64,000 nt of DNA from Gammaproteobacteria bacterium AqS3. GTDB lineage: Bacteria; Pseudomonadota; Gammaproteobacteria; MEIF01; AqS3. Positions within the stretch are counted from its first letter, which is position 1; every line of letters begins with the position of its first letter. The notes beneath the pieces are model-generated. The model did not search any database. It was not told where the DNA came from and saw nothing but the letters and a program-made list of their open reading frames with translations. Of this stretch, positions 2,695-24,711 are shown piece after piece. The translations under genes and the position numbers were made by a program. The stretch spans positions 7,236 through 71,235 of the forward strand of contig MEIF01000228.1 in the NCBI GenBank assembly GCA_001750645.1. The letters run 5' to 3'.

Positions 2695-3243
2695 ATGAAG
2701 GAACAGGATCAGAATTGGCAGGAGCGTGAGCGGCAGTTGGAGAAGCTGCGTAGACGGCTGCATCCGCTTACCGGCAATGCCATATTGAGGGACGTGATTG
2801 CAACACTAGTCTTAATCGGTTCTGTGAGTTGGTTTTACACTTCTGATTTTTATAGCTCTGATCACGGTGATTCACATCGGGGGACATATTTTGTTTTTGT
2901 GACGGCACTTCAAATAATTGGTCTGATTTACTTGATTATGATTTGGATAAATCACTGGCTTAATGGCGCGTCCATCAGGGAAATGGAGAAAAATCTCAGC
3001 GCCGGCGAGCTGCTTGAAATGTTTGAAAAAGAGCGTAAAAAAGTTGGCAATTCAATAATATTTTTAATGATCGGTTTTCTGATTTTCGGAGCGGCGTATC
3101 TGATCGGACTGATTGCCCCCCCTTACGGTTTAGGTCTTATGTTGGCTGGCGTGGGATTTAGCTGTCTTGCAGTTTCATTCTTTTTATATTGGCACTATAA
3201 AAGGTCTGAAAGTATGGCGCGTCAGATACTGCAAGAGCAGTAG
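2695..3243 (+). CDS. Small predicted 4-TM membrane protein, cassette paralog A (hypothetical)
   Basis: The gene is AT-rich in a GC-rich genome. It has a charged N-terminus, four hydrophobic segments and a charged central loop (ELLEMFEKERKK). It is paralogous in architecture and C-terminus (YWHYKRSESMARQILQEQ) to ORF 3533..4066. The two genes share the same RBS context, gagacgATGaa. Confidence 0.6.
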   Translation: MKEQDQNWQERERQLEKLRRRLHPLTGNAILRDVIATLVLIGSVSWFYTSDFYSSDHGDSHRGTYFVFVTALQIIGLIYLIMIWINHWLNGASIREMEKNLSAGELLEMFEKERKKVGNSIIFLMIGFLIFGAAYLIGLIAPPYGLGLMLAGVGFSCLAVSFFLYWHYKRSESMARQILQEQ

Positions 3244-3262
3244 CGCACTATCATCTGACGCC

Positions 3263-3468
3263 GGAGACCCTCACCGCCTAGCATCCCTGACCCTCGCGCC
3301 GGCGATCAGGCCGGACGCGATGCCCCAGACCTTCACCCGATGCCTGCCCCACCATTCGCCCCAGGCGCCCCCCTCCGGCTCCGAGCCTTCCGCATCGTCC
3401 GGCAGCAGGTCGCGACGCAGCCTGTGCCTGACAAACGCGCCGAACGATGCCCCGCCCCAGACTGCCCC
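3263..3468 (-). repeat. Orphan copy of the 3' end (last ~66 codons) of the OMP-like gene at 4082..5023, ~94% nt identical to 4076..4282
   Basis: Direct alignment of 3263-3468 with 4076-4282 shows about 12 mismatches in about 205 bp. The minus-sense translation GGASFGAFVRHRLRRDLLPDDAEGSEPEGGAWGEWWGRHRVKVWGIASGLIAGARVRDARR* differs from the authentic C-terminus at only 4 residues. Confidence 0.7.
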
Positions 3469-3532
3469 CGGCGGCGCGATTTTTTTGGGTTAAAATTGCA
3501 GCGGTCGTTTCGGCGATTTAGGAGGGGAGACG

Positions 3533-4066
3533 ATGAAAATACTGAATCAAGTAACGCAACAGGAAATCAAGCGGCAGACAAAAGATCTGAGCAAGCGGTT
3601 ACATCATCCGATTTTTGGGAGTGAAACGGCAAGCTGTATCGGTCACACAGTTTTGGTAATCGCTCTGCTTGTTGTGCCTTACTTTTTAGACATCCATTAC
3701 AGTGAGGAAATTATCCTAATACTATGCAATATTTTTATGCTGATTTCCTTGGCTGGCATGTGGATAATTCGCCTCTGGCCTACCGATCCTCTCAAAAAAG
3801 AGCAAGAGAAAAAGCCTAGCATCGCAGAGCTTGTTACACTATTTAAGGAGAAGCGCGAGATTTACGCTCGTATAGCAACTTTACTGATAGTCGGGCTTGT
3901 GTGTTGGAGTGTCAGTGTTTTGGTCGGGCTATTTGAGTCTTACTTTCTTGTTGCTTTTGTTACGTTTCAATTTTTTGTAGGCATTGCCATTAGCCAAACT
4001 TTTTATTGGCGTTATCGAAAGTTTGAAAAGATGGCGCGGCTGCTTGCGAAGCAGATCGCTGACTGA
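3533..4066 (+). CDS. Small predicted 4-TM membrane protein, cassette paralog B (hypothetical)
   Basis: The gene is AT-rich. It has the same domain layout as paralog A: a charged N-terminus, two TM segments, the loop ELVTLFKEKREIYA, two further TM segments and the C-terminus YWRYRKFEKMARLLAKQIAD. Its upstream 55 bp is homologous to the region upstream of paralog A. Confidence 0.6.
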   Translation: MKILNQVTQQEIKRQTKDLSKRLHHPIFGSETASCIGHTVLVIALLVVPYFLDIHYSEEIILILCNIFMLISLAGMWIIRLWPTDPLKKEQEKKPSIAELVTLFKEKREIYARIATLLIVGLVCWSVSVLVGLFESYFLVAFVTFQFFVGIAISQTFYWRYRKFEKMARLLAKQIAD

Positions 4067-5332: not shown

Positions 5333-7036
5333 TTAGGAAGAGGGAATGCCCCACAGCTCGATGGCCTTGGCCTTCAGTTTTTTGTGGCGCACCTGAAGGC
5401 GATCTAGATTCCAGTCAGGCAGGTCGCAGAGCTCCTTGGTCATATTGAAGGCGCTCTTCTTATTGGAATATTCGTAGGCTTCTATTTTTTTGTCGAAAGG
5501 GCTGTTTTAGGCAACCCCGTTTTTCCTCCGACTGAGCAGGGTCAAATTGCCCAGCATATTGCGATACTGCTCATGCTGCTCCTCGCTGAACCTCTCAGTC
5601 CAATAGTCTTTTCCCTTAATATTTTGGGGAAGGATGTGCTCAATCGTGATATTTCCCTTGTATTTTCTCTCCACACTTTCATCCTCGTAGGTTTCGTCAA
5701 GCCTTTGCAAAATGGACTTGATGAATTTATTGACCCGAGGACGAGAACCATCATAAAAGTCCTGTTTATCCAGAACATCTTCAAACTTCCATTTCTGATT
5801 ACCTTCAGCAGATAGATTCCTAATAGAGTTCATGACCTTCTCAAAGGTTGCATCCTTCGAGTTAATAGCCTCTACAGCATGGTAACGAGCCGCTTCCCGC
5901 TTGTTTTTATGTTCATCTCTCAAGCTTGCCTGGACATAAGTACGTTCAAACAAATCAACAAACTTTGCAAATAAATCCCAATCTGCAAACTTAATCCGAA
6001 AAGCCATAAATGCTGGGAGCCACTCATCTCTTCCTCCAATTTCGCTCAACAACTCTATGGTTTTAATAACAGGAGGATCATCATTCAAAATTTCGGCGTG
6101 CAGCTCGGCTGATTTGGCAAGAGATGCCGATAGGGAAACTGCAATATTACCTGAATCATTCTGCTTCAACTGATCCGTGTAATAGGGATAAAGCTTTGGC
6201 TTATTGGCTCGATCTCGGTCTTTCATTTCGGAAAATAAATTCAATCTCAAAAAGGAATTAATATTTTCAATTCCAATATTCTCCTCTATAGTTTTCCAAT
6301 TGTTTTCTACTTTTAGAGACTTATCTTCGTTGGAGGCAACTTTCTCCAACAGCACACTTTTAATCAAATCAGCATCGCTTAAAGACTGTCCCCGATTGTT
6401 GAGAACATGAAACATTCGAAAAGATGACTCCCTGTCATCGACCTCAACAAATACAACATACACTTGTCTCAAGAGATACTCCACCAATCTATTCAGAGGC
6501 AGAGTTAAATCTTCCTTAAGAAACTTCTGAATGGCCTCTGAATTATTTCGAAAAACTTTTTCAGTATCCGTATCTTTTTCTGGTTTTTGTTTTATTTCTT
6601 CCCTCAAAACTTGATCAGTGTAAAACCCCCGCTCTTTGTCTCTTACCTCAATAACTGGCCTCGTCAATCTATTAGCAGAAATATGATCCTCATTCAAATA
6701 CATACTTCTCAGCTTAGCTTTTAGTCCTTCATTATTTTTCTTTAATTCTTCATTATTTTCAATGACCCGAACCAATTCTCTTAAAATCAAAGTAAGCGTA
6801 ATGAGGCGCTGCTGTCCATCAACCACTTCAAAACGGTTGCCGTCCCGGATACAGATTAAACCGCCAATAAAGTACTCTCCTTGTTTCTCAGCGCAACTGT
6901 TATGCACGTCTTGCAGAAGCTCCTCCGCCTGATCTTTATCCCAGATATATGGACGCTGATAAGAGGGAATGTAGTACTGCGCACCCCCCAAAAAAGCCAG
7001 CGTTTTTTCCACACTTTGAATCTCAGCCTTCATCAA
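5333..7036 (-). pseudogene. GmrSD-like type IV (modification-dependent) restriction endonuclease with DUF262 N-terminal and DUF1524 C-terminal domains, interrupted by an in-frame TAA at 5507-5509
   Basis: The N-terminus has YQRPYIWDKDQAEELLQD and DGQQRLITLTL (DUF262/ParB-like nuclease domain). The C-terminus has ITIEHILPQN...GNLTLLSRRKNGVA (DUF1524/HNH-like). After the TAA the same frame continues NSPFDKKIEAYEYSNKKSAFNMTKELCDLPDWNLDRLQVRHKKLKAKAIELWGIPSS* to the stop at 5333-5335. The gene is AT-rich. Confidence 0.6.
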
Positions 7037-12456: not shown

Positions 12457-12546
<90 letters not shown>

Positions 12547-12702
12547 GGCGGTTTTCCTGCCGGGTGATATACTCCCGGCCGGGAAAATCTGATCAATCCA
12601 AGAGAGCAAGATCAGAAAAAATATCTCGTCTTTTTCTCGAAATTGATCGACGATTGCCAACCATCACTGTTTTGAATCAGACACTTTAAGACACCGTCTT
12701 AA

Positions 12703-13788
12703 ATGGAGAGAAAGATGAGAGCGAGAAATAAGGGTTCGTTTACTTTTATTGATCTTTTTGCGGGCATCGGCGGCATGCGCATCGCCTTTGATCGTGCTGG
12801 CGGGAAATGCGTTTTTACCTCGGAGTGGAACAAGTCCTGCCAGCAGGTCTACGAGGAGCAGTTCGGCGACAAGCCGCACGGCGACATCACGCAGATTGCA
12901 GCCGAGGAAATCCCCGAGCACGACGTGCTTGTTGCGGGCTTTCCGTGTCAGCCCTTTTCGATCGCGGGCGTGTCAAAAAAGAATGCGCTCCAAATGCCCC
13001 ACGGTTTTCACTGCAACACGCAAGGCACACTGTTTTTCGATATTGTCAGGATCGTTGCCCACCACAGACCCAAAGCTTTTCTGCTGGAAAATGTCAAAAA
13101 CCTGAAAAGTCATGACGGCGGCAACACATTCAATGTCATTTATAAAACGCTCACCGAAGAACTCGGCTACAACGTTCAGGCCAAAATAATCAATGCCAAA
13201 TCTTTTGTCCCGCAGCACAGGGAGAGAATATTTATCGTGGGGTTCCGGGATAAGAATCGCTTCAACTTTGAATCCATCAGAATTCCGCCCGCATTCAACG
13301 GCCCAAAATTGAGAACAATACTGCATCCGCAGGATGGCTCGGAGAAGACAGAGGATCCCTATACGACTGGCAACAAGGGCAAGGTTTCAGAGCGATACAC
13401 ACTTTCCGACAAGCTCTGGACTTACCTTCAAAACTATGCTGAAAAACACAGAGCCAAAGGCAATGGATTTGGATTTGGGTTGGTCGGCCCCGATGATGTC
13501 ACAAGGACGCTTTCCGCCCGCTACTACAAGGACGGCTCGGAAATACTCGTCGACCAGGGAAGCCGGCGCAACCCCAGACGGCTGACGCCCAGAGAGTGTG
13601 CCAGACTGATGGGATTTGACGCACCTGATCAAAGTTGCTTCAAAATAGCGGTATCAGACACACAGGCCTATCGACAGTTTGGCAATGCGGTTGTTGTGCC
13701 GGTTGTCGAGGCCGTTGCCAAGCACATCATTCCGTGGATTACCGTAGAAGAAAATATTCCAAATATTCAAGAAAAAGTAGCCCTCTAG
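12703..13788 (+). CDS. DNA (cytosine-5)-methyltransferase, Dcm/M.EcoRII-like
   Basis: Four C5-methyltransferase motifs are present: motif [11 protein letters not shown], motif IV FPCQPFS, motif VI ENV and motif X QFGNAV. The gene is AT-rich and sits immediately upstream of an EcoRII-like endonuclease gene. Confidence 0.9.
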
Positions 13789-13837
13789 CGAATGTGCTGC
13801 CTGTAGAAGTAAGTTCCATGCACGAGAGGAGAATGTT

Positions 13838-15085
13838 ATGAAGCGCGGGTCACTCAAACAATACTTTACCGATGTCGCGGTCAAGCGGCTCAGCACCGTA
13901 GAGGTTGACCTGAAGCGCTCTCACCAGCATGAATTAAATGGGGTCTCCGCGCTTAAAGCAATTTTTGGAGAGACGAAAGAGAGGCTCACATTTCAGGCCA
14001 CCTTTTTATGGCTGGACGATGAACTGGAAAAAGCTGAGGAAGAAGACAAGGGGTTTCTAACCTGGTATGACGCTCGACAGAATGACAAAACGCGATCATC
14101 AGAGTATCGACTGTATTTCAGCTCAACCAATATGATGAATCAGGCTCGCGAAGGCGACAGCATTTTCATCGCACTAAAGCCGGATCGATCACTTTTTGTC
14201 ATCGCCGTTCCATCCCAATCGACTATCAAACAGCAATTGCTATGGCTTTTTGATCTGAAAGACCTATCAGGGTCTTCCTTTGAAGTTAAAGAGGTTAGCC
14301 CCGACAAAGGCCCCGAATCTGATTTTGCAGTCAACTACATATTGGACATCCTTGGCATTAAAAAAACCGAGCCGTCTGATCCTGAACGTTTGGATCATCT
14401 GCTTAAACAGTTTGGCGGTGAGTTTCCGAGAACCCGACGCTTTTCAGATCTCGCTAGGGACAACTGTGAAGATGTCGACCCCCTAGAAGCACCGGATCTG
14501 GCCTTGACGCAATGGTTGGAATTTGAGGAAACTCTCTTTCTCCACCTCGAAAAAAAGATCATCGAAAAGCGCCTGCAAGACGGGTTTGTTGGCTCAGATG
14601 GCGACATAGATGTGGACAGCTTCCTCAAGTTTTCACTGAGTGTTCAGAACCGGCGCAAGGCACGGGCTGGCTTGGCACTGGAAAATCACCTTGAATACAT
14701 ATTCATAAACCATAAATTGGAGTTCGATAGGGGTGCGACAACCGAGAACCGCTCAAAGCCCGACTTCTTGTTCCCCGGCTCAAGCTGGTATCACTGCGAG
14801 AAATTCCCCGCATCACACCTCACGATGCTCGGTGCAAAATCCACCTGCAAGGATCGCTGGCGGCAGGTGCTATCCGAAGCCCGGCACATCCCAAAGAAAC
14901 ACCTCCTCACACTTGAGCCCAGCATCTCAGAGTACCAAACAACCGAAATGAAAAATTCAAACCTTCAGCTGGTTCTGCCAAGAACTTTACATCAAACTTA
15001 CACACGGCAGCAAAGGAGCTGGCTTATTGACTTGGAAGCATTTATTTCGGAAGTCAGGCGGAAACAGACTCAAGCGGGGTTGTAG
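13838..15085 (+). CDS. EcoRII-like type IIE restriction endonuclease (probable CCWGG specificity)
   Basis: The C-terminal half aligns closely with my recollection of the EcoRII catalytic domain. Matching segments are NRRKARAGLALENHLEYIF, KPDFLFP and STCKDRWRQVL. The N-terminus is an effector-like domain. The gene follows a Dcm-type methylase. Confidence 0.75.
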   Translation: MKRGSLKQYFTDVAVKRLSTVEVDLKRSHQHELNGVSALKAIFGETKERLTFQATFLWLDDELEKAEEEDKGFLTWYDARQNDKTRSSEYRLYFSSTNMMNQAREGDSIFIALKPDRSLFVIAVPSQSTIKQQLLWLFDLKDLSGSSFEVKEVSPDKGPESDFAVNYILDILGIKKTEPSDPERLDHLLKQFGGEFPRTRRFSDLARDNCEDVDPLEAPDLALTQWLEFEETLFLHLEKKIIEKRLQDGFVGSDGDIDVDSFLKFSLSVQNRRKARAGLALENHLEYIFINHKLEFDRGATTENRSKPDFLFPGSSWYHCEKFPASHLTMLGAKSTCKDRWRQVLSEARHIPKKHLLTLEPSISEYQTTEMKNSNLQLVLPRTLHQTYTRQQRSWLIDLEAFISEVRRKQTQAGL

Positions 15086-15236
15086 GGGTTATTAAAATCT
15101 CGGGAGGTGCAACACCCAACATTTCATATTCGGGCAAATCCCAAGGGACAAATATCATCTCTAGTACTAGCAGAGCATCACCATCTAAATCGCGCCATAT
15201 AATATTTGTCGCCGAATAAAAACAGTTTGACAAAAA

Positions 15237-17039
15237 ATGATAAACAGGAATCTAAAAAAATATTTGGATAATCTAGAGCAAGAGCCCAAAGCTCTTACTT
15301 CTTATCATGGCGAGCATGATATTGCAGAGGCAATCAAACAAATTCTCAAGCAAGATGGGCAATATGAACTAACGAAAGAAGATATCGCCGAGCGAATTGC
15401 CTTTGATTTTATGCCAGAATATCCAAATTATGATCCGGGTTGGGAAACATACTATGGACCAATGTATATTTTGCCGAATAGTGAAGGGCAAATGATGGAA
15501 TATCCAAGTGTCAGGAGAGTAGACCAAGAAATTCTTAAGTACTGGGAAAAAAGAGCAAAAGAAAGTCAAAATCCTATCTTGTCATCGCGCTATGCTGACC
15601 TAGTCGTTGATTTTTCACCAATAGTCTTAAACAAAAAAGCAAATATTGATCTATTCCGAAAAGTCATAGATTCAAATATAGCTATTTGTGAAGAATTACT
15701 CGCTGACCACTTGGATTGCAAAACCAAAATTGAAAGGGCACTGGTTTTGTCAATTCAAATAAACGATCAAAAACAAATTGAGAATATAAAAAATACGATC
15801 CTAAAATTAGAAGAAATCGCTGCCGTTGACGATGCACCCGGGCTTTGGGGATTTGCTTTCAAGTGGCTGCTTCTAGATTTTCCAAAGAAAATCACTCTGG
15901 ACGATAAAGAAAAAAACGATCTTATAAATAAACTTGAAAGAAGACTGGAAAGAGTTGAGAAGGACCCATGGCTTGCAGAAAATGCTGTCGCTTTGCTCGC
16001 AGAATATTATGCAAGTCAACAAGACGAAAAAAATCTCATGCGTGTTTTGGGTGTTTTAGAAAATTCATTCAAAGCAAATGAACGTCTAAATTCTGACGCT
16101 TTACTACAAACACATATCTATGAACAGATACATGAGATATATCGAAAATATGCAAGTCGATTTAAAGAAGCTGAAGAGGCAAATAAAAGGCTTTCGCGAG
16201 AAATTGGACGGCTTGACCTAGACTGGGAAAAATCTTTGACAAAGATATCCGCTGAAATACAAGTTGAAAAGGAGGATATTGAAAAACACCTAAAAGGTAT
16301 TTTTGGCGAAAACAGGGATGATATATTGGAAGAAGTTATGGTTAGAGTTGCTGTGAACCACTTGCCCATAGAAGATTATGTTAAAAGGCAGCTTGATGAA
16401 ATTTCTGGCAAAAGCCCCTTGCAGTTTTTATTAGAAAGACAAGTCGTTTCAGATGACGGAATTCCGATTGCCAAGCTGTCCAGATTGGATGAAGACTACG
16501 AGAATAATTTTCAAAGTTTTGCTTTGCAATATATGCAATTCGGCTCGTTTTTTCTATCACTTACATTAGACGAACTGCGAAAACGAGTTGCCAAAGAAAC
16601 AGTATTGGAGTATTTTGAAAAATCATTAATTTTTGAAAATGAAGATAAGGAATATTTAGAACGAGCAATTTCTGCATATTGGGATGAAGATTATTTAGTT
16701 GCTTCGCATCTATTTAATCCGCTAATCGAGAGCGGAGTTAGAGAATTAATAAGAATTGGGGGCGGTCAAGTCCTAAAACCTAATGGTTTGAATGGATACG
16801 ATAAAGTATTGCTTGGAAGATTACTGAAAAACAAGGAAATCTTTGAACGTGCATTTTCAGAGGCTGGAACGCATGTTTTGTTTTATTTCAGATTGGTTCT
16901 TACTGAAAGACTGGGGATGAACTTAAGAAATGATTTTGCACACGGAATTGGCAAGAAAAAGTTTTTCGGACATGATGCCTCTGATAGGTTATTTCATATT
17001 TTAATTTGGCTATCGGTTGTAAAGTTAAAAGAAAGTTAA
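15237..17039 (+). CDS. Large uncharacterised protein with a C-terminal HEPN-like Rx4HG motif (LRNDFAHG), putative abortive-infection/defence protein
   Basis: The 600-aa ORF is AT-rich. Its only recognisable motif is R-N-D-F-A-H-G near the C-terminus, which fits the HEPN Rx4-6H signature. It resembles DUF4209 / Abi-like C-terminal families. It lies in a defence island. Confidence 0.45.
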   Translation: MINRNLKKYLDNLEQEPKALTSYHGEHDIAEAIKQILKQDGQYELTKEDIAERIAFDFMPEYPNYDPGWETYYGPMYILPNSEGQMMEYPSVRRVDQEILKYWEKRAKESQNPILSSRYADLVVDFSPIVLNKKANIDLFRKVIDSNIAICEELLADHLDCKTKIERALVLSIQINDQKQIENIKNTILKLEEIAAVDDAPGLWGFAFKWLLLDFPKKITLDDKEKNDLINKLERRLERVEKDPWLAENAVALLAEYYASQQDEKNLMRVLGVLENSFKANERLNSDALLQTHIYEQIHEIYRKYASRFKEAEEANKRLSREIGRLDLDWEKSLTKISAEIQVEKEDIEKHLKGIFGENRDDILEEVMVRVAVNHLPIEDYVKRQLDEISGKSPLQFLLERQVVSDDGIPIAKLSRLDEDYENNFQSFALQYMQFGSFFLSLTLDELRKRVAKETVLEYFEKSLIFENEDKEYLERAISAYWDEDYLVASHLFNPLIESGVRELIRIGGGQVLKPNGLNGYDKVLLGRLLKNKEIFERAFSEAGTHVLFYFRLVLTERLGMNLRNDFAHGIGKKKFFGHDASDRLFHILIWLSVVKLKES

Positions 17040-17138
17040 AGAGGATTTTACTTGCACCTACATTAAGAAGTTTAGGAGGAGCGATGCGATATTAAAACAT
17101 GCAATGCCGAGTAAACCCAGAGTAAATTCTTTGGATTT

Positions 17139-18596
17139 TCAAGCCAAATTAATAAGTTTTTGGACATATTGCAAGTTCAAATATGATCCCGTAGGAATCT
17201 CTCTCATTTTGTATATGACAGCCATAATTCTCCCTTCCTGATTCTGGGATTTTTGTATATGCTTTGAAAAAAGTGCCGAATCAATAGATCCTTCAGCCCT
17301 TTCTATTCTCTGTCCCTGTTTGTAGATTTCTCTAACATTCGGACATAGAAGATAAAAATATGCTTCTATTATTTCAAGAAAGCTCCGATCAGCTTCTCCT
17401 ATCTCCAACCCTGACCTTTCTATTTCATCTCTTAGATAGTCATACCCCTTAATAAGCGATATTTCTCCCTTGGTCACTTGTCTATATAACTCTACCTTCT
17501 TCAATCTCACTATCAATAGTGGAATAATCAAATGCGGAAGAATGTGGTAATTCTTCTCACAATTTCTGAAACTTAAAATTAAAGATCTCATTATGCTATC
17601 TAAATCTCTAAGTGAGATATCGAAATAAGAAAAGAATTTGGGTATAAACTCTTGAGCTCTAACCATTCCTGTTTTCTGGTCTGGAGCACTGTATGAAACC
17701 CTTATCAAACCGTCAAAAGCTATTTTAAGTTCATATCGTTCAATCAAATGTTCAAAAAAATGATCTAAGTCGGGCTCAGGAATAGAGAATTCGAAATCAA
17801 AAAATCTTCTCAAATAAATGTCTGAAGCAATATCGCCATATACAGATTGGATAGATTTTTCTAGCTGAGCTCTATCCATACCCAATATGAACACTATGCT
17901 TTCAACATCAAATATATGTTTGACTCTTTCCAAGAGTTCTATCGCAAAAGTTGGGCGGCATCTGTCCAATTCATCAATAATGAAAATTAGAGGCCGATCA
18001 TTTTTCTTTCGGTATTCCTGTGCTAGTCCTTGCAAATTATCTTTCAAAATTTTTTTACTCTTATTATGCTTAATGTACTGATCGACAACCTCATCTTTTT
18101 CAGTTTTCATGAAATTTTTCAAACTATTCTTTAGCTTAATAAGTAAATCCTCAATGTTCAATACAATTCCCAGTTCTATTTTCAAATAAGTTTGCAATCC
18201 CAATAGTAATGTTCTCAGAAAAATACATGCTTTCTTACAAAAAGATATATTTGGTTCATTAAAGTGTTTATAGATCTGGCCTACTAGTGCAACCAGTGGA
18301 TCGTTATGAAAATCATCCTCCCAGGCATTGAAGTAAATAGTCTCAAACTCTCTATTCTTCAAATCCGCTTCCAACCGTTTCAGAAAAAATGTCTTCCCAC
18401 TTCCCCAAGAACCGTCAACACTGATAACCAACGGCTGAGTTTGGCCGTCGATAAAAGTGATCAGTTTCTCTGCCAGTTCTCTCCTACCTAGAACATCATC
18501 GCGCCACACATCATCCTTCGGCACTTCCGCCTCCAGCACCTTCGCAGCAATCTCTTTCTGCCGCTGCCCAAAGTCACTCACCCCACCCTCACTCAT
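17139..18596 (-). CDS. KAP-family P-loop NTPase
   Basis: The Walker A motif is VISVDGSWGSGKTFFLKRL. The KAP motif is YFNAWEDDFHNDPLVALV. The Walker B motif is LIFIIDELDRCRP. The gene is AT-rich. Its start overlaps the stop of the upstream amine oxidase gene by 8 bp. Confidence 0.8.
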   Translation of the reverse strand: MSEGGVSDFGQRQKEIAAKVLEAEVPKDDVWRDDVLGRRELAEKLITFIDGQTQPLVISVDGSWGSGKTFFLKRLEADLKNREFETIYFNAWEDDFHNDPLVALVGQIYKHFNEPNISFCKKACIFLRTLLLGLQTYLKIELGIVLNIEDLLIKLKNSLKNFMKTEKDEVVDQYIKHNKSKKILKDNLQGLAQEYRKKNDRPLIFIIDELDRCRPTFAIELLERVKHIFDVESIVFILGMDRAQLEKSIQSVYGDIASDIYLRRFFDFEFSIPEPDLDHFFEHLIERYELKIAFDGLIRVSYSAPDQKTGMVRAQEFIPKFFSYFDISLRDLDSIMRSLILSFRNCEKNYHILPHLIIPLLIVRLKKVELYRQVTKGEISLIKGYDYLRDEIERSGLEIGEADRSFLEIIEAYFYLLCPNVREIYKQGQRIERAEGSIDSALFSKHIQKSQNQEGRIMAVIYKMREIPTGSYLNLQYVQKLINLA

Positions 18597-20613
18597 TCAA
18601 ATCCGCTGCGGGGCTGCGATCATAGAAGTTCCGGGGTTTGAGGATGATCTGGTCCATCTTGGCGGGCAGGACGGGCCAGTCTTCGGCGACGGGGATGTGG
18701 TGAAAGCCCATGGTCGCCCAGGCGACCAGGTCGGCATCGACCAGGCTTTCATCGTCGGCAATGAACTCGGGCAGTCCCTGGCCGGGGTCGGAGTTGCTGA
18801 CGAATGCACCGGCGGCGTAGATCTCATCGGGTTTGTAGCGCGTCACCCACAGGTTGCTGCGCAGGAACATCGCCCTGGAATACTGCGGATCGCGCAGGTC
18901 GACCAGTGGGCGCACGGGTTTCATCATGATTTGATATCCGGTCGGATAGCCCATCCTGTTCTGCCGGGCGCTGCTGGACAGTGTCAGTGCGGCCGGGGTC
19001 TCGGGGTTGAGCACGGTCTCTGCGGCGCGTTCGGTTTTGACGTGGTTCGGTTCCACGCGCCAGACGCTCATCCGGTAGGGGTTGTCGGTGAGGGTTTCGG
19101 TGCGCAGGCGATGCCGGTGGAAGTTGTTCTCAAGCCCGTCAATGTCAAGGTCGATGCGGTAATTAAAGAAGTGGTCGTGGTTCATGGCGATGCGGTGCGG
19201 GGCGATGAGCGCCCCGGTGCGGGTGTCCTCGGCTCCGCTGGGGTCGTCAATGCGCACAGCGCGCACGGCCTTGACCGCATCGATGCCGGTCGAGGTCAGC
19301 CGGATGCGCAGCCGTCCGTCCTGCTGAAACACGTAGTCCTGGAAGTAGTCGTAGTTGCCGAGCGTGGCGACCATGCGAACCACCAGCTCGACCGCCGGGC
19401 GCGACTCGTGCGGCTGCAGGCCGGGGATGCCGTCGTAGACCGCCTCGTGGTGCCGCCACATCGGTATGCCCGGGTCGTGCTCGAACACACAGATCCGGTC
19501 CTCGCCAATGCTCGGCTCGCCCGCCGGACTGTGCAGCACAACATCGAGCATCACGGCGTGGCGGGGGCAGTCGGCCTTCTGCAGCGGCGTTGCGTTGAGG
19601 CCAAAACCCAGCTCGCCCATGTCGAAGTAGGCTTTGTAGAAGTGGTGCAGGGTTTCGTCCTGGTAGGGGACGAACATCTCCGACATGGCGATTTCGTATG
19701 CGATGCGGCGCGGGTCGGCGCCGGGCTGGGTCATCTCGACGTTGTTGAGGATCGTCCCCTGGCGGGCATCAAAGCGCAGGTGGAACGACCACCCCTGCCA
19801 GGCGATGCGCTCGTCGGCAATGGTGAAGTTGCGGCCGTTGGGGCGCGAGATATGCACCGGCGCCAGCTGCGCGCGCGGGGGGATGGCCGAGATGCTGAAC
19901 TCGTCGGTGGGCAGCTTGAAGGGCGGGGCGTCGTCGCCCTGGAAGGTGTCGTCGATCTGGAGGATCTCGCCGGTCGCCAGGCTGTAGAGGATGCTGAGAT
20001 CCTCAATCGGCCGTGCCCAGATATTTCCGCTGGGCAGCCCCAGCATTCCGTCGCCGGCGATGTAGGTGCAGTCGACTTTGACCAGCCGCTTGAGGGCGGC
20101 GTCCTCGCCGCCGTAGAACTGACCCAGCGGGCGGGGCAGGCACAGGACGTTCTCGGGTTCGGCGCCGCGCTTGCTCAGGGCTTGGAGGATGCGCGCATCC
20201 TGCATGATGGTTTCGATCACCGGGCGGACCTCGCCTTCGCTGGACATTCTGGGCGTGCCCCGCCGAGCGGGCTGCTTGCTGGTGATGGCTCCGGTCGCCA
20301 AATCCACTCGCGCCAGATAGAAGATGCCGTTGTGGCCATAGGCGATCTCGGCGCTGCGCTCGGGTGTCTCACCGGGCGACCAGGCCAGCGCGCGGGCTTT
20401 GTTCGGCTCAGCGAGGCTGATGCGATTGAACAGCAGGACTCCCTCGCCGGCATCGCTGCGCACGGCCTCGGCAGCACGGGCGATTTCATCGCTGGTCAGC
20501 GAGCGCCAAGGAGTCAGCTCGATCTCGCCCCGGGGCATATCGGAGCAGCCCGCCAAAAGCAGGAGCAGCCCGACCGCCCATATTCCCTTGTGAAAGCCTT
20601 GTTGGAGTTTCAA
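18589..20613 (-). CDS. Copper-containing (TPQ) amine oxidase, lipoprotein signal
   Basis: A lipobox LLLAGCS is present. The TPQ consensus is TLGNYDYF (T-x-x-N-Y-D-Y). His ligands are present (HRIAMNHDHFF). The size (674 aa) is typical of TynA-family amine oxidases. Confidence 0.85.
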   Translation of the reverse strand: MKLQQGFHKGIWAVGLLLLLAGCSDMPRGEIELTPWRSLTSDEIARAAEAVRSDAGEGVLLFNRISLAEPNKARALAWSPGETPERSAEIAYGHNGIFYLARVDLATGAITSKQPARRGTPRMSSEGEVRPVIETIMQDARILQALSKRGAEPENVLCLPRPLGQFYGGEDAALKRLVKVDCTYIAGDGMLGLPSGNIWARPIEDLSILYSLATGEILQIDDTFQGDDAPPFKLPTDEFSISAIPPRAQLAPVHISRPNGRNFTIADERIAWQGWSFHLRFDARQGTILNNVEMTQPGADPRRIAYEIAMSEMFVPYQDETLHHFYKAYFDMGELGFGLNATPLQKADCPRHAVMLDVVLHSPAGEPSIGEDRICVFEHDPGIPMWRHHEAVYDGIPGLQPHESRPAVELVVRMVATLGNYDYFQDYVFQQDGRLRIRLTSTGIDAVKAVRAVRIDDPSGAEDTRTGALIAPHRIAMNHDHFFNYRIDLDIDGLENNFHRHRLRTETLTDNPYRMSVWRVEPNHVKTERAAETVLNPETPAALTLSSSARQNRMGYPTGYQIMMKPVRPLVDLRDPQYSRAMFLRSNLWVTRYKPDEIYAAGAFVSNSDPGQGLPEFIADDESLVDADLVAWATMGFHHIPVAEDWPVLPAKMDQIILKPRNFYDRSPAADLNE

Positions 20614-20722: not shown

Positions 20723-21895
20723 ATGTCCGCTCGAGTTGAACAAGCCAATGCCGAGGTCCTGCGCCAGTGCCGCGAGCAGCTGGGCTTTGAAATTGATGAG
20801 GTGGCAAGAAAAGTCAAAAGCATTGCCGCCATTGAAGCCGACGAATTGAAACCCACTTTCAAGCAGCTGAAAACACTTTCTGATCTATATGAGGTTCCTG
20901 ACTGGGTGTTTATTTCTGATGCCATTCCAGAAAGGTTTCGGCTGACTTCCTCGCCAAGCTATCGTCTATTTAAGAAGGCTGGTGCCCCGCTTAATCCCAA
21001 AGTCAACAAACTGCTCATTCGGGTTGAACAGCTGCGTGAACTCGTCATTGACTTTCAGGAAGATCAGGATGAACAATCAGATCCGTTTGACCCGCCTGAA
21101 TGGACTGAAGATGTCAAGACCATGGCCAAGCGTGTGCGCGAATGGCTGGAATTGGACTCGGGCAACAGGCGGCACTGGTCTTTTGATGAGCTGCGCGAAA
21201 AGCTGGAACAGAAAGATGTTTTTATTTTGATGACCAGCAAATATAACGGGCCTTGGAAGTTCAGCGTCGAAGAGGATTTTCGCGGGCTGTGCATCTTTTA
21301 TGGCCTCCTGCCCATTGTGGTCATCAATGATTCTGATAATAAAAAAGCTCAGTCATTTTCGTTGATACATGAATTAGGGCATCTATTAAGGCGAGAAAGT
21401 ATTTTTGATCACAAAAGTATTTTGGACGATGACAAATGGGACAGAGATGATGAGGAGCGTTGGTGCGATGAATTAGCTGAAGAGGTTTTGATGCCGTACG
21501 AACTGGTGAATCCGAACTCCTACCGTTCATTCAATGAATTAAAAGATAAGGATATTCAAGTATTGGCTAAAGAATTTATGGTCAGTCCCTATGTCTTCTG
21601 TTTTAGACTGCAATCTTTGGATCTGATCACCGAAGACAAAGCCAATAAATTTAAACGTCAGATCAAAGAAAAATCACTTTCGCAAAAAGCTTCCGGCAGC
21701 GTCCCTATTTCACGAAAGCGTCATAAAGAGGCACTGCGTCAGTTCGGCAGCATATACACAAAGACTGTTTGGCAGGCTTATTATGATGATGAATTAGATT
21801 TGTTAAGGCTGGGAAAGTTGTTTGAACTCAATAAACTGCATTATGTTCAAGAAATGCGGAAAATTATTCCTTCTACAATAACGCAGAGTGGATAG
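20723..21895 (+). CDS. HTH (XRE-family) and ImmA/IrrE-family zinc metallopeptidase fusion protein
   Basis: The N-terminal helix-turn-helix is LRQCREQLGFEIDEVARKV. The ImmA/IrrE (DUF955) core has a HEXXH motif, SLIHELGHLL. The gene overlaps the downstream PIN-like gene by 8 bp. Confidence 0.75.
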   Translation: MSARVEQANAEVLRQCREQLGFEIDEVARKVKSIAAIEADELKPTFKQLKTLSDLYEVPDWVFISDAIPERFRLTSSPSYRLFKKAGAPLNPKVNKLLIRVEQLRELVIDFQEDQDEQSDPFDPPEWTEDVKTMAKRVREWLELDSGNRRHWSFDELREKLEQKDVFILMTSKYNGPWKFSVEEDFRGLCIFYGLLPIVVINDSDNKKAQSFSLIHELGHLLRRESIFDHKSILDDDKWDRDDEERWCDELAEEVLMPYELVNPNSYRSFNELKDKDIQVLAKEFMVSPYVFCFRLQSLDLITEDKANKFKRQIKEKSLSQKASGSVPISRKRHKEALRQFGSIYTKTVWQAYYDDELDLLRLGKLFELNKLHYVQEMRKIIPSTITQSG

Positions 21896-22406
21896 GTATT
21901 GCTTAGACGCGAATACTCTGACCAATCCATTTTATGAAACCTACCCACGGAACTTAGAAATTTTTCAAAACATGTGGGACTTATTAGCTGCCAATCAGAA
22001 AAGCTTGGTTCTCATCAAGCCAATTTACGATGAAGTCTTACAATTTTGTGAACGAGAAGCCAAAGATTCTGATTCAAACTCTTTAGTGAATTGGCTAGAG
22101 GAACATAATTTTTCATATATCCCTATCACATCAGAAGACGAAAGACTCGCGCTGAATATTCGCCAAGAATACAAGCCCGGCCCCAAAGGTATTAGCGTTA
22201 CTGACTCAAAATTGATTGCGTATGTAGAAAACCAAAGGCCAGACTTATTGGATTCATTTTGCTTGGTAACCGAAGAGAGTCCTCAAACTGATAAGTCGAA
22301 ACTTAAAAAGAAAAACTACAAAATTCCGGCCGTCTGCGAAGAGCGGGGAATAAGGTGCATTAATCTGATTGATCTGCTGCGTGAATTAAGTTCCGGAACT
22401 GAGTAA
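21888..22406 (+). CDS. PIN-like (DUF4411-like) putative nuclease, partner of the ImmA/IrrE protein
   Basis: The N-terminus is MDRYCLDANTL, a PIN-type start. The protein has acidic residues spaced as in PIN folds. ImmA/IrrE and DUF4411 genes are known to pair in this way. Confidence 0.5.
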   Translation: MDRYCLDANTLTNPFYETYPRNLEIFQNMWDLLAANQKSLVLIKPIYDEVLQFCEREAKDSDSNSLVNWLEEHNFSYIPITSEDERLALNIRQEYKPGPKGISVTDSKLIAYVENQRPDLLDSFCLVTEESPQTDKSKLKKKNYKIPAVCEERGIRCINLIDLLRELSSGTE

Positions 22407-22430: not shown

Positions 22431-23327
22431 TTACCGCTGCGCGGAATATGAATATCCATCACCAATCTTCCAGACTCCACGCTCGCGGAAGGCGGGGATG
22501 GTCTGGCGCTTGGCGGCGTTGGTCAGCGCCGGTGCTGACAGTCCGTGTTCGCGGATGAAGTCGGACAGCCGAACCGGCATCTCTCCCCTCAGATAGGTCG
22601 TGCGCTTGTGCAGCGATTCCAGCAGGGCGAAGTGGAGCATATTCCCAAACCGTCGCGCACCGCGCATCGCCGGATGACTGAGGTCAAAGCCGGCAAATGA
22701 CCGGTAGTAGTCCCGACGATCAGGAAAGCGAATCATCACGCGGGGCAGCCCCAGGAGCTGCAGCTGAAGGTTGATGAGCTCGCGACCAATGCGCCCGTTG
22801 CCGTCGACAAAAGGATGTATCCATTCAAAGCCCAGGTGAAACTGCGCAATGCGCTCGACAAAATGCTCCCGTGCGGGGCTGAGATATTCCTGCAGCAGCT
22901 CGGCCAGCAGCCCCTCAATGTTTTCAGGCGGCGGTGCGATGTGCGGGCCGACCTGAACATACTCGCCCAGGTCGCGAAAGCGCCCCGCAATGGTCTCGTC
23001 AATCGGCAGCATCAGCATCTGGTGCAGGTGCAGGATGATCTCCCGATCCAGCCCGCCGGAATATCGGCGCATGAAGCCGATCACCTGCCCCAGACTCGCA
23101 GCCTCCTGAACCTCGCGCAGCTGCACCTGGCGCTTGGGTATGCCCCCCGCGAGAATTTGATCGGTTTCCTCCAGCGTCAGCGTTGAGTTCTCAATGGCAT
23201 TGGAGTGGTAGACGCTCTCGGGAACTTCTGTGCCATCAATGACTTCCAGCAATTCCTCTCGCCCCGGAGCGAGCTCAAAATACTGCTCCAGCAGTTCATC
23301 AATGCGCTGTTGTCTGGATGGTGTCAT
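22431..23327 (-). CDS. Fic-family protein (AMPylator), class II with N-terminal inhibitory motif
   Basis: The Fic motif HPFVDGNGRIGR is present. The N-terminal SNAIEN matches the (S/T)xxxE(G/N) auto-inhibitory helix motif. Confidence 0.85.
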   Translation of the reverse strand: MTPSRQQRIDELLEQYFELAPGREELLEVIDGTEVPESVYHSNAIENSTLTLEETDQILAGGIPKRQVQLREVQEAASLGQVIGFMRRYSGGLDREIILHLHQMLMLPIDETIAGRFRDLGEYVQVGPHIAPPPENIEGLLAELLQEYLSPAREHFVERIAQFHLGFEWIHPFVDGNGRIGRELINLQLQLLGLPRVMIRFPDRRDYYRSFAGFDLSHPAMRGARRFGNMLHFALLESLHKRTTYLRGEMPVRLSDFIREHGLSAPALTNAAKRQTIPAFRERGVWKIGDGYSYSAQR

Positions 23328-23445: not shown

Positions 23446-24611
23446 TCAGTTCACGTTTTCAGTCCCGCCTTTGACACTCATTAGCACTTCATCGGCACCG
23501 GGCAGTCTCTGGTAGCGCCCCTGATCAAATGCCGCCAGCCCGGCGCCCTCCAGCACGGCCAGGCTGGCGCTGATCTGCTGGGCGCCGAGACCCGAGCAGC
23601 GCTGCATCAGCTGGTCGTAGCTGATCGGGTCGGCGCTCAGCGCCCTGAGCACGCTCCAGTCCTGATCGCTCAACACCGGCAGTTCGGGCTGCGGCAGCGG
23701 CGGCAGATCCTCGACCTCGGGCAGGGTGACCATCGTCTGCAGCGCCTCGATGACGTGGCCGGGGTGCTCGGCCAGCGTCGCACCCTCGCGTATCAGGCGG
23801 TGGCAGCCCTGGCTGTTCGAGCTGTGAACCGGGCCGGGAACGGCAAACACCTCCCTGCCCTGCTCGATCGCATAGCGCGCGGTCACCAGCGAGCCGCTCG
23901 AGCTGGAGGCCTCGATGACGATACAGGCCAGGCTCAATCCACTGATGATGCGGTTGCGGGTCGAGAAGTGCCAGGTTCGCGTCTGCACGGCAATGGGCTG
24001 TTCGCTCAGCAGCGCACCCCCCTCGGCGATCAGCCCGGCCAGCTCGGCATTGCGGCGCGGAAACACCCGGTCGATGGGGGTTCCGAATACGGCAATGGTC
24101 GGCCGGTCAGAGTCGACGGCCTCCTGCTGGGCAGCGCCGTCAATGCCGACGGCCATGCCGCTGGTGACCACGAATCCGCTCTCAGCAAAGGTGCGCGCAA
24201 AGGATTGCGACAGCGCCAGGCCGTAAGGCGTGGCCCGGCGACTGCCGACTATGGCCAGCTGAGCCTGTCCCAGCAGCTCGGGGTTGCCGCGAACGTAGAG
24301 CACCAAAGGCGGATCCGGGGTCTCCCTCAGCAGCGACGGATAGCCCGGCTGACCCTGAACCAGGATGTGGTTGATCGAGTCGGCCTCGCACCAGCGCAGG
24401 TCGGGTTTGATCAGACGCTCGAGGCGACCGGGCTGCAGCTGCGGCAGCCATCGCTCGAGCGGGTGGCCCTTCGGGTCGAGCTCGCGCAGCCTCTCGACGG
24501 CGACGGCTGCCGAGCCGCAGTGGTGCATCAGTTCAGCGCGCTGCTTGGGTGTGGTGATGCGGTTCAGCGCCAGCGCCGAGTGCATCTCATCTGGCGGTGG
24601 TGAGATATTCA
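23446..24611 (-). CDS. dprA: DNA processing protein DprA (Smf)
   Basis: The Rossmann-like core has AIVGSRRATPYG, SGMAVGIDGAAQQ and AVFGTPIDRVFP. The start is placed at MNISPPPDE. The upstream 181 residues of track ORF 23446..25155 are antisense to def. Confidence 0.85.
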
Positions 24612-24711
24612 TACTAATATGCGCCCGTTTTGGAGGCCCATTCTTAAGGCTTCTGACCCAAACAAATGTGATCCAGATCACACCCCATCTTCCACGCTCC
24701 ATCTGGCAAAT

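Follow-up and report, generated by a model that had tools for sequence, protein, structure and literature searches.

What built the low-GC cluster of defense genes that abuts a tRNA-Ser gene in the sponge symbiont Gammaproteobacteria bacterium AqS3, and do its genes belong together? The stretch analyzed here, which we call the window, comprises 64,000 nucleotides (nt) of contig MEIF01000228.1 (assembly GCA_001750645.1, positions 7,236 to 71,235). Its proteins appear in databases under "MAG: Gammaproteobacteria bacterium AqS3", MAG standing for metagenome-assembled genome, and its sequence is contained in the 311-kb contig JADHEJ010000044.1 of assembly GCA_015278115.1. An earlier sequence-only reading had described a defense island at 12.5-18.6 kb, next to tRNA-Ser(GGA), and had taken it for an old, fixed insertion that has lost its mobility genes. 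We find that it named the right kind of locus but misjudged its history and extent. The interval between tRNA-Ser and dprA is likely a composite defense island that was assembled, without an integrase, from several gene-sized pieces acquired separately, with three independent modules in its tRNA-side block: a restriction-modification (R-M) pair, a HEPN protein and a KAP NTPase. All components fall into known families (EcoRII/Dcm, KAP NTPase) or into published or candidate ones (DUF4209-HEPN, PDC-S39, PDC-S20).

Composition and extent of the interval

The block on the tRNA side carries four genes of defense type, all with intact open reading frames (ORFs), whose products are given below with their lengths in amino acids (aa):

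12457-12546, + strand: tRNA-Ser(GGA), intact and with CCA encoded, the left anchor of the island (ARAGORN; Rfam tRNA, 56.3 bits).
12552-12587, strand not applicable: GC-rich imperfect hairpin, TTTTCCTGCCGGG ... CCCGGCCGGGAAAA (sequence read directly).
12703-13788, + strand: Dcm-type C5 cytosine methyltransferase, 361 aa (Pfam PF00145, PADLOC MTase_II, NCBIfam, BLASTP).
13838-15085, + strand: type II restriction endonuclease of predicted EcoRII architecture, 415 aa (Pfam EcoRII-C, PDB matches, AlphaFold2 and Foldseek).
15237-17039, + strand: DUF4209 HEPN protein, predicted all-alpha, 600 aa, PDC-S39 candidate (Pfam DUF4209, PADLOC, alignments A1 and A5, AlphaFold2).
17139-18596, - strand: KAP-family P-loop NTPase, 485 aa, PDC-S20 candidate, convergent with the HEPN gene (Pfam KAP_NTPase, PADLOC, alignment A3).

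The tRNA is the only one that ARAGORN finds in the window and the only Rfam match in 12-24 kb; together with the four genes beyond it, it bears out the earlier placing of a defense island next to tRNA-Ser(GGA). Hidden Markov models (HMMs) of PADLOC match all four proteins: MTase_II at 1e-148, REase_II at 2e-33, PDC-S39 at 4.5e-35 over residues 93-571 of the 600-aa protein, and PDC-S20 at 2.3e-107 over residues 20-484, that is, the full length of the KAP protein. These results are HMM matches only, without PADLOC's system rules, and at that level the defense identity for which PADLOC had been named as the check holds for every gene.

Composition divides this block. Host-like DNA of the window has a GC content of 0.62-0.70 and a GC content at third codon positions (GC3) of 0.80-0.85. 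A 400-nt sliding profile falls from 0.62-0.69 upstream of the tRNA to ~0.45-0.52 at 12.6-15.1 kb, falls again to 0.32-0.38 at 15.2-18.4 kb, and is back at 0.6-0.69 from 18.6 kb. Gene by gene, GC3 is 0.59 for the methylase, 0.55 for the endonuclease, 0.30 for the HEPN gene and 0.35 for the KAP gene. The block to the right of tRNA-Ser is made of two GC tiers rather than one, and the HEPN gene, whose 0.30 contrasts with 0.80-0.85 in the host, has ameliorated little. The earlier reading had the AT-rich block begin straight after the tRNA; the GC drop is there, but the first 40 nt form the GC-rich hairpin, from its sequence probably the terminator of tRNA-Ser, and low-GC DNA starts at ~12.59 kb. 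The GC profile suggested earlier as a means of delimiting the island does recover low GC over 12.59-18.6 kb, but in two tiers and with a further low-GC block past the amine oxidase gene. The right boundary proposed at 18596 does not hold, as low-GC genes and a Fic gene continue to dprA at 23.4 kb. These genes are given here, followed by an islet that lies upstream of the tRNA:

18589-20613, - strand: copper primary-amine oxidase, intact to residue 669 of 674 (Pfam Cu_amine_oxid 8e-116; NCBIfam primary-amine oxidase).
20723-21895, + strand: fusion of a helix-turn-helix (HTH) domain with an M78 (ImmA/IrrE-type) zinc peptidase, 390 aa, GC 0.44 (Peptidase_M78 1.6e-12; weak HTH match; weak PADLOC capP/RmrA-like match, ~1e-12).
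21888-22406, + strand: DUF4411 PIN-like nuclease, 172 aa, GC 0.40, overlapping the M78 gene by 8 bp (DUF4411 3.1e-14, PIN 4e-4).
22431-23327, - strand: Fic-domain protein with the motif HPFVDGNGRIGR, 298 aa, GC3 0.70 (Pfam Fic 2.9e-22; PADLOC PDC-S04/SoFic ~1e-24).
23446-24612, - strand: dprA, first gene of dprA-def-fmt-rsmB-trkA (identified from its translation).
5507-7036, - strand: lone GmrSD-type type IV restriction enzyme with N and C domains, GC ~0.39 (PADLOC Orf5/HEC-06 1.6e-70).

The amine oxidase gene is host-like in composition (GC 0.65, GC3 0.85) and its product has no PADLOC match; it is a non-defense gene that splits two low-GC blocks, the second of which lies at 20.7-22.4 kb (GC ~0.40-0.44; GC3 0.46 for the M78 gene and 0.41 for the DUF4411 gene). 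The variable interval runs from tRNA-Ser to dprA, ~12.59-23.4 kb (~10.8 kb), with at least three foreign composition classes among host-like genes. The GmrSD islet lies ~5.5 kb upstream of the island, set between host-like genes, with no integrase and no tRNA nearby. Because composition classes are interleaved in the interval and the GmrSD islet lacks an integrase, we favor serial, integrase-independent capture of single genes or pairs. Judging by this second AT-rich islet, piecemeal insertion seems usual in the AqS3 genome.

Searches for traces of mobility agree with the earlier statement that the locus has neither an integrase gene nor a duplicated tRNA end. With up to 3 mismatches allowed, the last 25 nt of the tRNA occur only once in the window. 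The 3' half of the tRNA, taken together with the 54 nt that follow it, shares no 11-mer with either strand of 12.6-30 kb, and the Pfam lists contain no integrase or transposase among the called genes of ~7-30.6 kb. The intergenic gaps inside the interval measure 24-156 nt, too little to accommodate the remnant of an integrase. With one mismatch, 15 nt at 12612 are directly repeated at 18380; we considered this repeat as an att candidate and discarded it, as its second copy lies in P-loop coding sequence.

The HTH-M78 and DUF4411 genes match a predicted three-component toxin-antitoxin-like module in which the M78 gene comes first (PMC5499597). According to a published analysis, the co-resident symbionts AqS1 and AqS2, unlike AqS3, can make dopamine and trace amines (PMC10570526); with its copper amine oxidase, AqS3 may consume amines made by these neighbors. 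Elsewhere in the window, two small AT-rich ORFs (182 and 177 aa; GC 0.42-0.44) lie at 2695-4066 in GC-rich surroundings; they match no Pfam family over its gathering score and no PADLOC family.

The genes of the tRNA-side block and their relatives

The methylase and the endonuclease form a tandem pair, M then R, with the methylase gene (GC 0.505) ending 49 nt upstream of the endonuclease gene. The methylase matches Pfam DNA_methylase PF00145 at 6.6e-89 (299 bits), reaches 417 bits with PRK10458, the NCBIfam model of the Dcm subfamily, and exceeds the cut-off of TIGR00675. In BLASTP, E. coli Dcm is 52% identical to it over 335 residues (12-346), which include the catalytic motifs and the target-recognition region. 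In the endonuclease, a predicted N-terminal B3-like pseudobarrel (~1-175) is followed by linker helices and a C-terminal PD-(D/E)XK EcoRII-C domain (229-406). EcoRII-C (PF09019) matches residues 234-403 at 3.1e-66 (223 bits against a cut-off of 25), and the EcoRII structures 3hqg and 1na6 match residues 229-406 at 1e-40 (3hqg 1.3e-40), with ~50% identity to EcoRII-C. The segments KPDFLFP and AKSTCKDRWRQ align with EcoRII, and E282, D309 and K334, which we take to be the equivalents of the EcoRII catalytic residues, are unchanged in 30 homologs. The Dcm-type methylase and EcoRII-like endonuclease of the sequence-only reading are therefore upheld by Pfam and by the identity to Dcm, and the B3-like N-terminal domain extends the likeness to EcoRII.

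That extension comes from structure prediction. The first 228 residues of the endonuclease match no Pfam family, EcoRII-N included, even at E<=10, and the enzyme aligns over its whole length, at 51-56% identity, with more than 6,800 proteins of 405-415 aa. An AlphaFold2 model built from 30 homologs (mean predicted local distance difference test score, pLDDT, 83.8; predicted template-modeling score, pTM, 0.78) matches full-length EcoRII in Foldseek (1na6, 9e-26 over 421 columns; 3hqg, TM score 0.85). Its N-terminal part matches the EcoRII effector domain 3hqf (5e-4, probability 1.0) and further the B3-like domains of BfiI, UbaLAI, LlaJI.R1 and plant ARF/LEC2. Because the model matches EcoRII both at full length and in its N-terminal part, the enzyme is predicted to have the complete EcoRII two-domain plan, with the N-terminal effector domain recognizable at the level of fold. 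The idea that the N-terminal half is a new domain was dropped, its predicted fold being B3-like as in EcoRII-N.

From the 52% identity to Dcm and the ~50% identity to EcoRII-C, the target of the pair is probably CCWGG. The methylase would then probably mark the inner cytosine of CCWGG. In EcoRII, the effector domain shuts the catalytic domain until it is bound to a recognition site, so that cleavage needs several unmethylated sites. The B3-like domain of the AqS3 enzyme would most likely bind one unmethylated site, upon which the PD-(D/E)XK domain would cut another. A vsr homolog was found nowhere in the 64-kb window (tblastn with E. coli Vsr, best E 5.2). As a separate observation, another site, GGWCC, is strongly scarce in the host-like parts of the window (44 observed versus 132 expected, an observed-to-expected ratio of 0.33, z -7.6), a scarcity that suggests AvaII-like restriction pressure over a long time, exerted by a system absent from this window.

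The 600-aa protein consists of a conserved N-terminal region (GW.TY.GP), a solenoid resembling tetratricopeptide repeats (TPR; ~97-325) and a C-terminal DUF4209 domain (PF13910, residues 497-590, 35.4 bits against a gathering score of 22.3), with a partial, sub-threshold match to DUF7380 at residues 100-183. No NTPase family matches it. The Rx4HG motif that had been read as HEPN-like is RNDFAHG at residues 564-570 (R564-x4-H569-G570), and it falls in a published HEPN family: DUF4209 is the C6orf70 family, which was placed in the HEPN superfamily with TPR fusions and R-M related operons noted (Anantharaman et al., 2013, PMC3710099). R564 and H569 are invariant both in alignment A1 (30 sequences) and in A5 (31 diverse sequences, down to 27% identity), and conservation of G570 is complete in A1 and at least 90% in A5. 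The residues invariant in A5 fall into a C-terminal set (E498, R502, Y550, G560, N562, R564, H569, R584) and an N-terminal one (W69, T71, Y72, P75, P90, R106, R118, Y119, R167). The latter (residues 60-170) lies far from the HEPN motif, is in part modeled poorly by AlphaFold, and might serve as a sensor or form another active site.

An AlphaFold2 model of the protein (pLDDT 71.8) is all-alpha and confident in its middle part, which resembles the TPR solenoids of LGN and kinesin light chain with weak Foldseek E-values. The start at ATG 15237 is backed by nine conserved first residues; the database call starts at TTG 15264 (591 aa) and looks short. Among 255 homologs found, the best 120 are 58-74% identical over the full length, the protein's own 100% record aside, and their hosts are Patescibacteria of the Candidate Phyla Radiation (CPR), Aminicenantes, Ignavibacteria, Atribacterota, Deferribacterota and an Aenigmatarchaeota MAG. 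An exhaustive profile search gives 3,136 representatives of the DUF4209 family, nearly all of 580-610 aa and matched end to end, within which the 600-aa subclade is tightly conserved, its members in CPR bacteria, Proteobacteria and a DPANN archaeon sharing 60-74% identity.

We retrieved 55 genomic loci with a DUF4209 homolog, 15 of them informative at >=60% identity. An R-M-type gene stands immediately upstream or divergent in 14 of these 15, and the R-M genes are of seven or eight unrelated kinds (L numbers denote loci):

L003, L004, L007, L008, L024, L057: EcoRI-like methylase and ParB-N/HNH nuclease (PADLOC REase_II).
L006, L011, L012: TaqI endonuclease and LexA-S24-fused N6/N4 methylase.
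L017: LexA-fused C5 methylase.
L009: MutH-like nuclease.
L010: Eco57I/MmeI-type enzyme.
L013: RE_endonuc protein.
L026: EcoRV and D12 methylase.

The close homologs lie 3-35 nt downstream of the type II R-M genes or divergent from them, and type I HsdR genes occur near more distant homologs (L020, L021, L049, L056). Nucleotide similarity of the HEPN gene to CPR and other MAGs, up to 76.7%, covers 15232-17044 and ends at the ORF borders, and DUF4209 genes keep a GC content of 30-36% even where their surroundings are at 0.49-0.56. In IMG/VR viral contigs we found no DUF4209 homolog. We conclude that the HEPN gene is a single-gene module that moves alone and yet habitually adjoins restriction systems. 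In AqS3 itself, GC3 jumps from 0.55 (R) to 0.30 (HEPN) over a 151-nt gap, so the two genes have not been long-term partners in one genome.

Two side observations were made in these loci. Complete LexA DNA-binding and S24 peptidase domains are fused to DNA methyltransferases (N6/N4 or C5) in L006 (1209-2741), L011 (3592-5124), L012 (1112-2644) and L017 (5063-6640), divergent from the DUF4209 homologs and, in L006, L011 and L012, accompanied by the TaqI-type endonuclease; such fusions may put R-M under SOS-type self-cleaving control. In a Paceibacterota MAG (L021), a Fic protein 49% identical to that of AqS3 is encoded ~8.5 kb from the DUF4209 homolog.

The 600-aa protein would act as a latent RNase whose N-terminal and TPR-like portion senses infection; two Rx4H motifs joined in a dimer would then cut RNA and arrest the infected cell, as a second line behind restriction. 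Tentatively, and as one possibility among others, it might be a generic companion of type II restriction: an AT-rich, ORF-sized cassette encoding a HEPN RNase that backs up restriction or controls the establishment of R-M at the RNA level, and that is triggered not by binding to a partner enzyme but by something shared by all restriction systems, such as DNA cleavage that has failed or is under way, with the N-terminal set (GW.TY.GP, R106, R118/Y119, R167) as its sensor.

The KAP assignment proposed earlier is confirmed by KAP_NTPase (PF07693; 2.9e-39, 135.5 bits against a cut-off of 20). Walker A (GSWGSGKT, 62-69) and Walker B (IIDELDR, 206-212) are in place, with G65, G67, K68, T69, D208 and E209 invariant in alignment A3, and they are separated by an insert of ~135 residues that is moderately hydrophobic at 116-150. 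In a simple hydropathy test, the highest Kyte-Doolittle 19-mer of the protein scores 1.43 against the usual transmembrane threshold of 1.6. The C-terminal 186 residues (300-485) match nothing in Pfam at E<=10. The nearest non-self homolog is 45% identical, with more than 3,500 family hits. The protein is not QatA, as the NCBIfam QatA model gives 70.9 bits against a cut-off of 600 and neither QueC, TatD nor any other Qat gene lies next to it. It would work as an NTP-driven switch joined to its uncharacterized C-terminal region.

The stop of the amine oxidase gene (TGA 18589-18591) and the start of the KAP gene (ATG 18596-18594) share 8 bp (ATGAGTGA, 18589-18596), an overlap that the sequence-only reading had reported and that is real if ATG 18596 is the start. 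Since 20 homologs align from residue 1 (M-S/T-E/Q ..., L18, K19, E22, W31, D34, R38; alignment A3), this ATG is the family-typical start. In another assembly the KAP protein is called at 480 aa, which fits an in-frame GTG at codon 6, and the overlap would become a 7-nt gap. Between the two genes there is no consensus promoter- or terminator-like site, in a scan that has no power to discriminate here, its counts being no higher than in shuffled sequence. Because the genes overlap, no such site separates them and homologs are placed likewise, the simplest reading is that the KAP gene is expressed by read-through from the resident amine oxidase gene, possibly with translational coupling, in line with the host promoter proposed for it earlier.

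We read eight contexts of KAP homologs: three in type I R-M operons, two in islands with Mrr and three solitary among metabolic genes:

L140-L143: hsdM-KAP-hsdS-SocA-hsdR.
L139: hsdM ... GmrSD_N, HEPN_RiboL-PSP, KAP, insertion sequence, hsdS, Cas13a.
L146: hsdM-NADAR-Fic-KAP-hsdS-Macro-M78-hsdR.
L149, L150: KAP in islands with Mrr, toxin-antitoxin pairs, reverse transcriptase or AIPR.
L144, L145, L148: solitary KAP among metabolic genes.

Two of the three solitary copies lie 32 and 112 nt behind a metabolic gene on the same strand, and IMG/VR viral contigs hold one KAP homolog only. A tblastn search with the window proteins finds a KAP homolog in none of the 55 DUF4209 loci, and we discarded on that count the idea that HEPN and KAP form a two-gene system.

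Alternative histories and significance

The strongest competitor of the composite island is functional coupling: the R-M pair, the HEPN protein and perhaps the KAP protein would form one layered unit like PrrC with EcoprrI, in which the HEPN RNase or the KAP switch monitors restriction and fires when a phage disables it. The neighborhoods speak for it, as type II R-M genes stand beside the close DUF4209 homologs in 14 of 15 informative loci and the M-R-HEPN order on one strand recurs with other R-M kinds (L004, L026, L057). KAP homologs sit between hsdM and hsdS, and PrrC also works with type I R-M, which holds it inactive (bioRxiv 2022.08.21.504612). The DUF4209 family was itself listed in R-M operons by Anantharaman et al. 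(PMC3710099). However, a specific guard of the PrrC-EcoprrI type is hard to imagine for seven or eight unrelated partner kinds with different folds, and the HEPN protein has no NTPase domain. The 151-nt gap to R and the fall of GC3 across it, with a like jump in L024, argue against co-evolution in one genome, and the KAP gene follows a metabolic gene on the other strand and is never found with DUF4209 homologs (0 of 55 loci). On balance we hold coupling to be unlikely, though it remains the alternative to be taken most seriously.

An ancient, single insertion of an integrative island into the 3' end of tRNA-Ser, with subsequent loss of integrase and attR, would account for a block of foreign composition that abuts a tRNA gene, the classic integration site, with no mobility genes left. 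It does not account for two composition classes in that block and a third past the amine oxidase gene, nor for a GC3 that at 0.30 is still far from the 0.85 of the host. The tRNA is intact and has no partial duplicate, the gaps are too small for an integrase remnant, the similarity of the HEPN gene to other genomes ends at its ORF borders, and a lone AT-rich defense gene (GmrSD) lies upstream, away from any tRNA. The old, fixed insertion of the sequence-only reading is not supported, given the same composition classes, weak amelioration and ORF-limited similarity, and we regard a single old island as improbable. An assembly or binning artefact, in which a GC-rich contig took up AT-rich reads from other organisms, for example CPR bacteria, is suggested by the source being a MAG and by the closest HEPN relatives being in CPR and other uncultured lineages, and is very improbable given that host-like DNA flanks each low-GC block on both sides within a 311-kb contig, that the KAP gene starts within the end of the host-like amine oxidase gene and all ORFs are intact, that the HEPN and R proteins are each found on two contigs, and that the identical KAP protein is also encoded on a different contig, of 172 kb.

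Several observations count against the composite island that we favor, or against the functions assigned to its parts. The recurrence of both accessory families beside R-M genes could be a sign that they are functionally coupled and not independent. Host-like DNA shows no depletion of CCWGG (observed-to-expected ratio 1.03), which leaves no footprint of long-term CCWGG restriction; this fits a recent arrival or carries no information. The GC3 of the KAP gene follows a host-like gradient at the 5' end (18270-18596), with 0.6-0.7 in codons 1-30 and ~0.45 in codons 31-110 against 0.1-0.3 later in the gene, for which an in-gene crossover with a GC-richer allele is a possibility; a host sequence fused in frame at the 5' end was discarded, as homologs align from residue 1. 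In the model of the 600-aa protein, helices flank the motif (486-507, 533-558, 579-593) and pLDDT is below 50 at 557-576; Foldseek returned no HEPN match with this model, only weak TPR ones, and profile searches of PDB and Pfam matched no other HEPN family. The HEPN fold is supported by the motif and the literature, not by structure here. Our literature search found no report of an experiment on PDC-S39 or PDC-S20, papers only listing PDC-S39, and no biochemical or anti-phage characterization of any DUF4209 family member. Finally, no related genome showing an empty site or the residency of the amine oxidase gene turned up in our genome and metagenome scans: a DprA scan of 185,579 species genomes yielded no close relative of AqS3, and a metagenome scan with the neighboring oxidoreductase (qor) gave nothing above 54% identity.

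As a defense island the locus is ordinary. Read as a composite, it would be a clean example of integrase-free, gene-by-gene build-up of defense in a vertically inherited animal symbiont, with the 3' end of a resident metabolic gene serving as the landing place of a foreign one. The most useful product of this work is the quantified neighborhoods, with PDC-S39 beside many kinds of type II R-M and PDC-S20 inside type I R-M operons, and both families are attractive for experiments on restriction-linked second-line defenses. The very large family of 405-415-aa enzymes that pass as "EcoRII-C only" probably has the full EcoRII plan, to judge from our model, with an N-terminal domain undetected by sequence models.

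Comparison with known systems

The interval resembles tRNA-linked genomic islands in its foreign composition, its position directly 3' of a tRNA and its defense cargo. Unlike such islands, it lacks an integrase and a repeated tRNA end, its composition falls into several classes, and it encloses a metabolic gene that looks resident. The R-M pair is close to EcoRII/Dcm in its 52% identity to Dcm, in the EcoRII-C match with its catalytic motifs and in the predicted fold, B3-like N-terminal domain included. Unlike in EcoRII/Dcm, the AqS3 genes are in tandem, M then R, with no vsr repair gene nearby, and the N-terminal domain matches EcoRII-N in fold only, not in sequence.

The KAP protein shares the P-loop domain with Walker A and B with single-gene KAP defenses (PDC-S20, Tmn and EF_KAP; distantly PifA and QatA). 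Single-gene KAP NTPases with uncharacterized C-terminal regions protect Enterococcus faecalis against phage and need Walker B (PMC13552941), and the AqS3 protein resembles these validated fusions in a C-terminal region without known domains; experimental validation exists for KAP NTPases of subfamilies other than PDC-S20. In contrast to Tmn and EF_KAP, it has no segment that reaches the transmembrane hydropathy threshold, and its match to PifA is only partial. Tmn synergizes with PrrC, Gabija and Septu (bioRxiv 2022.08.21.504612).

The 600-aa protein agrees with the C6orf70/ERMARD-type HEPN family (DUF4209), which is PDC-S39 in PADLOC, in its HMM matches, invariant Rx4H(G), TPR-like fusion and R-M neighbors (PMC3710099), and within that family the AqS3 copy sits in the tightly conserved 600-aa subclade. 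With PrrC/EcoprrI it has in common a HEPN motif in a protein encoded beside R-M genes and a plausible role in second-line, suicide-type defense. PrrC, however, begins with an ABC-type NTPase and is dedicated to a type I system in whose operon it is encoded, whereas the 600-aa protein lacks NTPase motifs, is tied to no one partner and has a type II system as its neighbor; what it may share with PrrC is the way of working, and it does not belong to the PrrC type.

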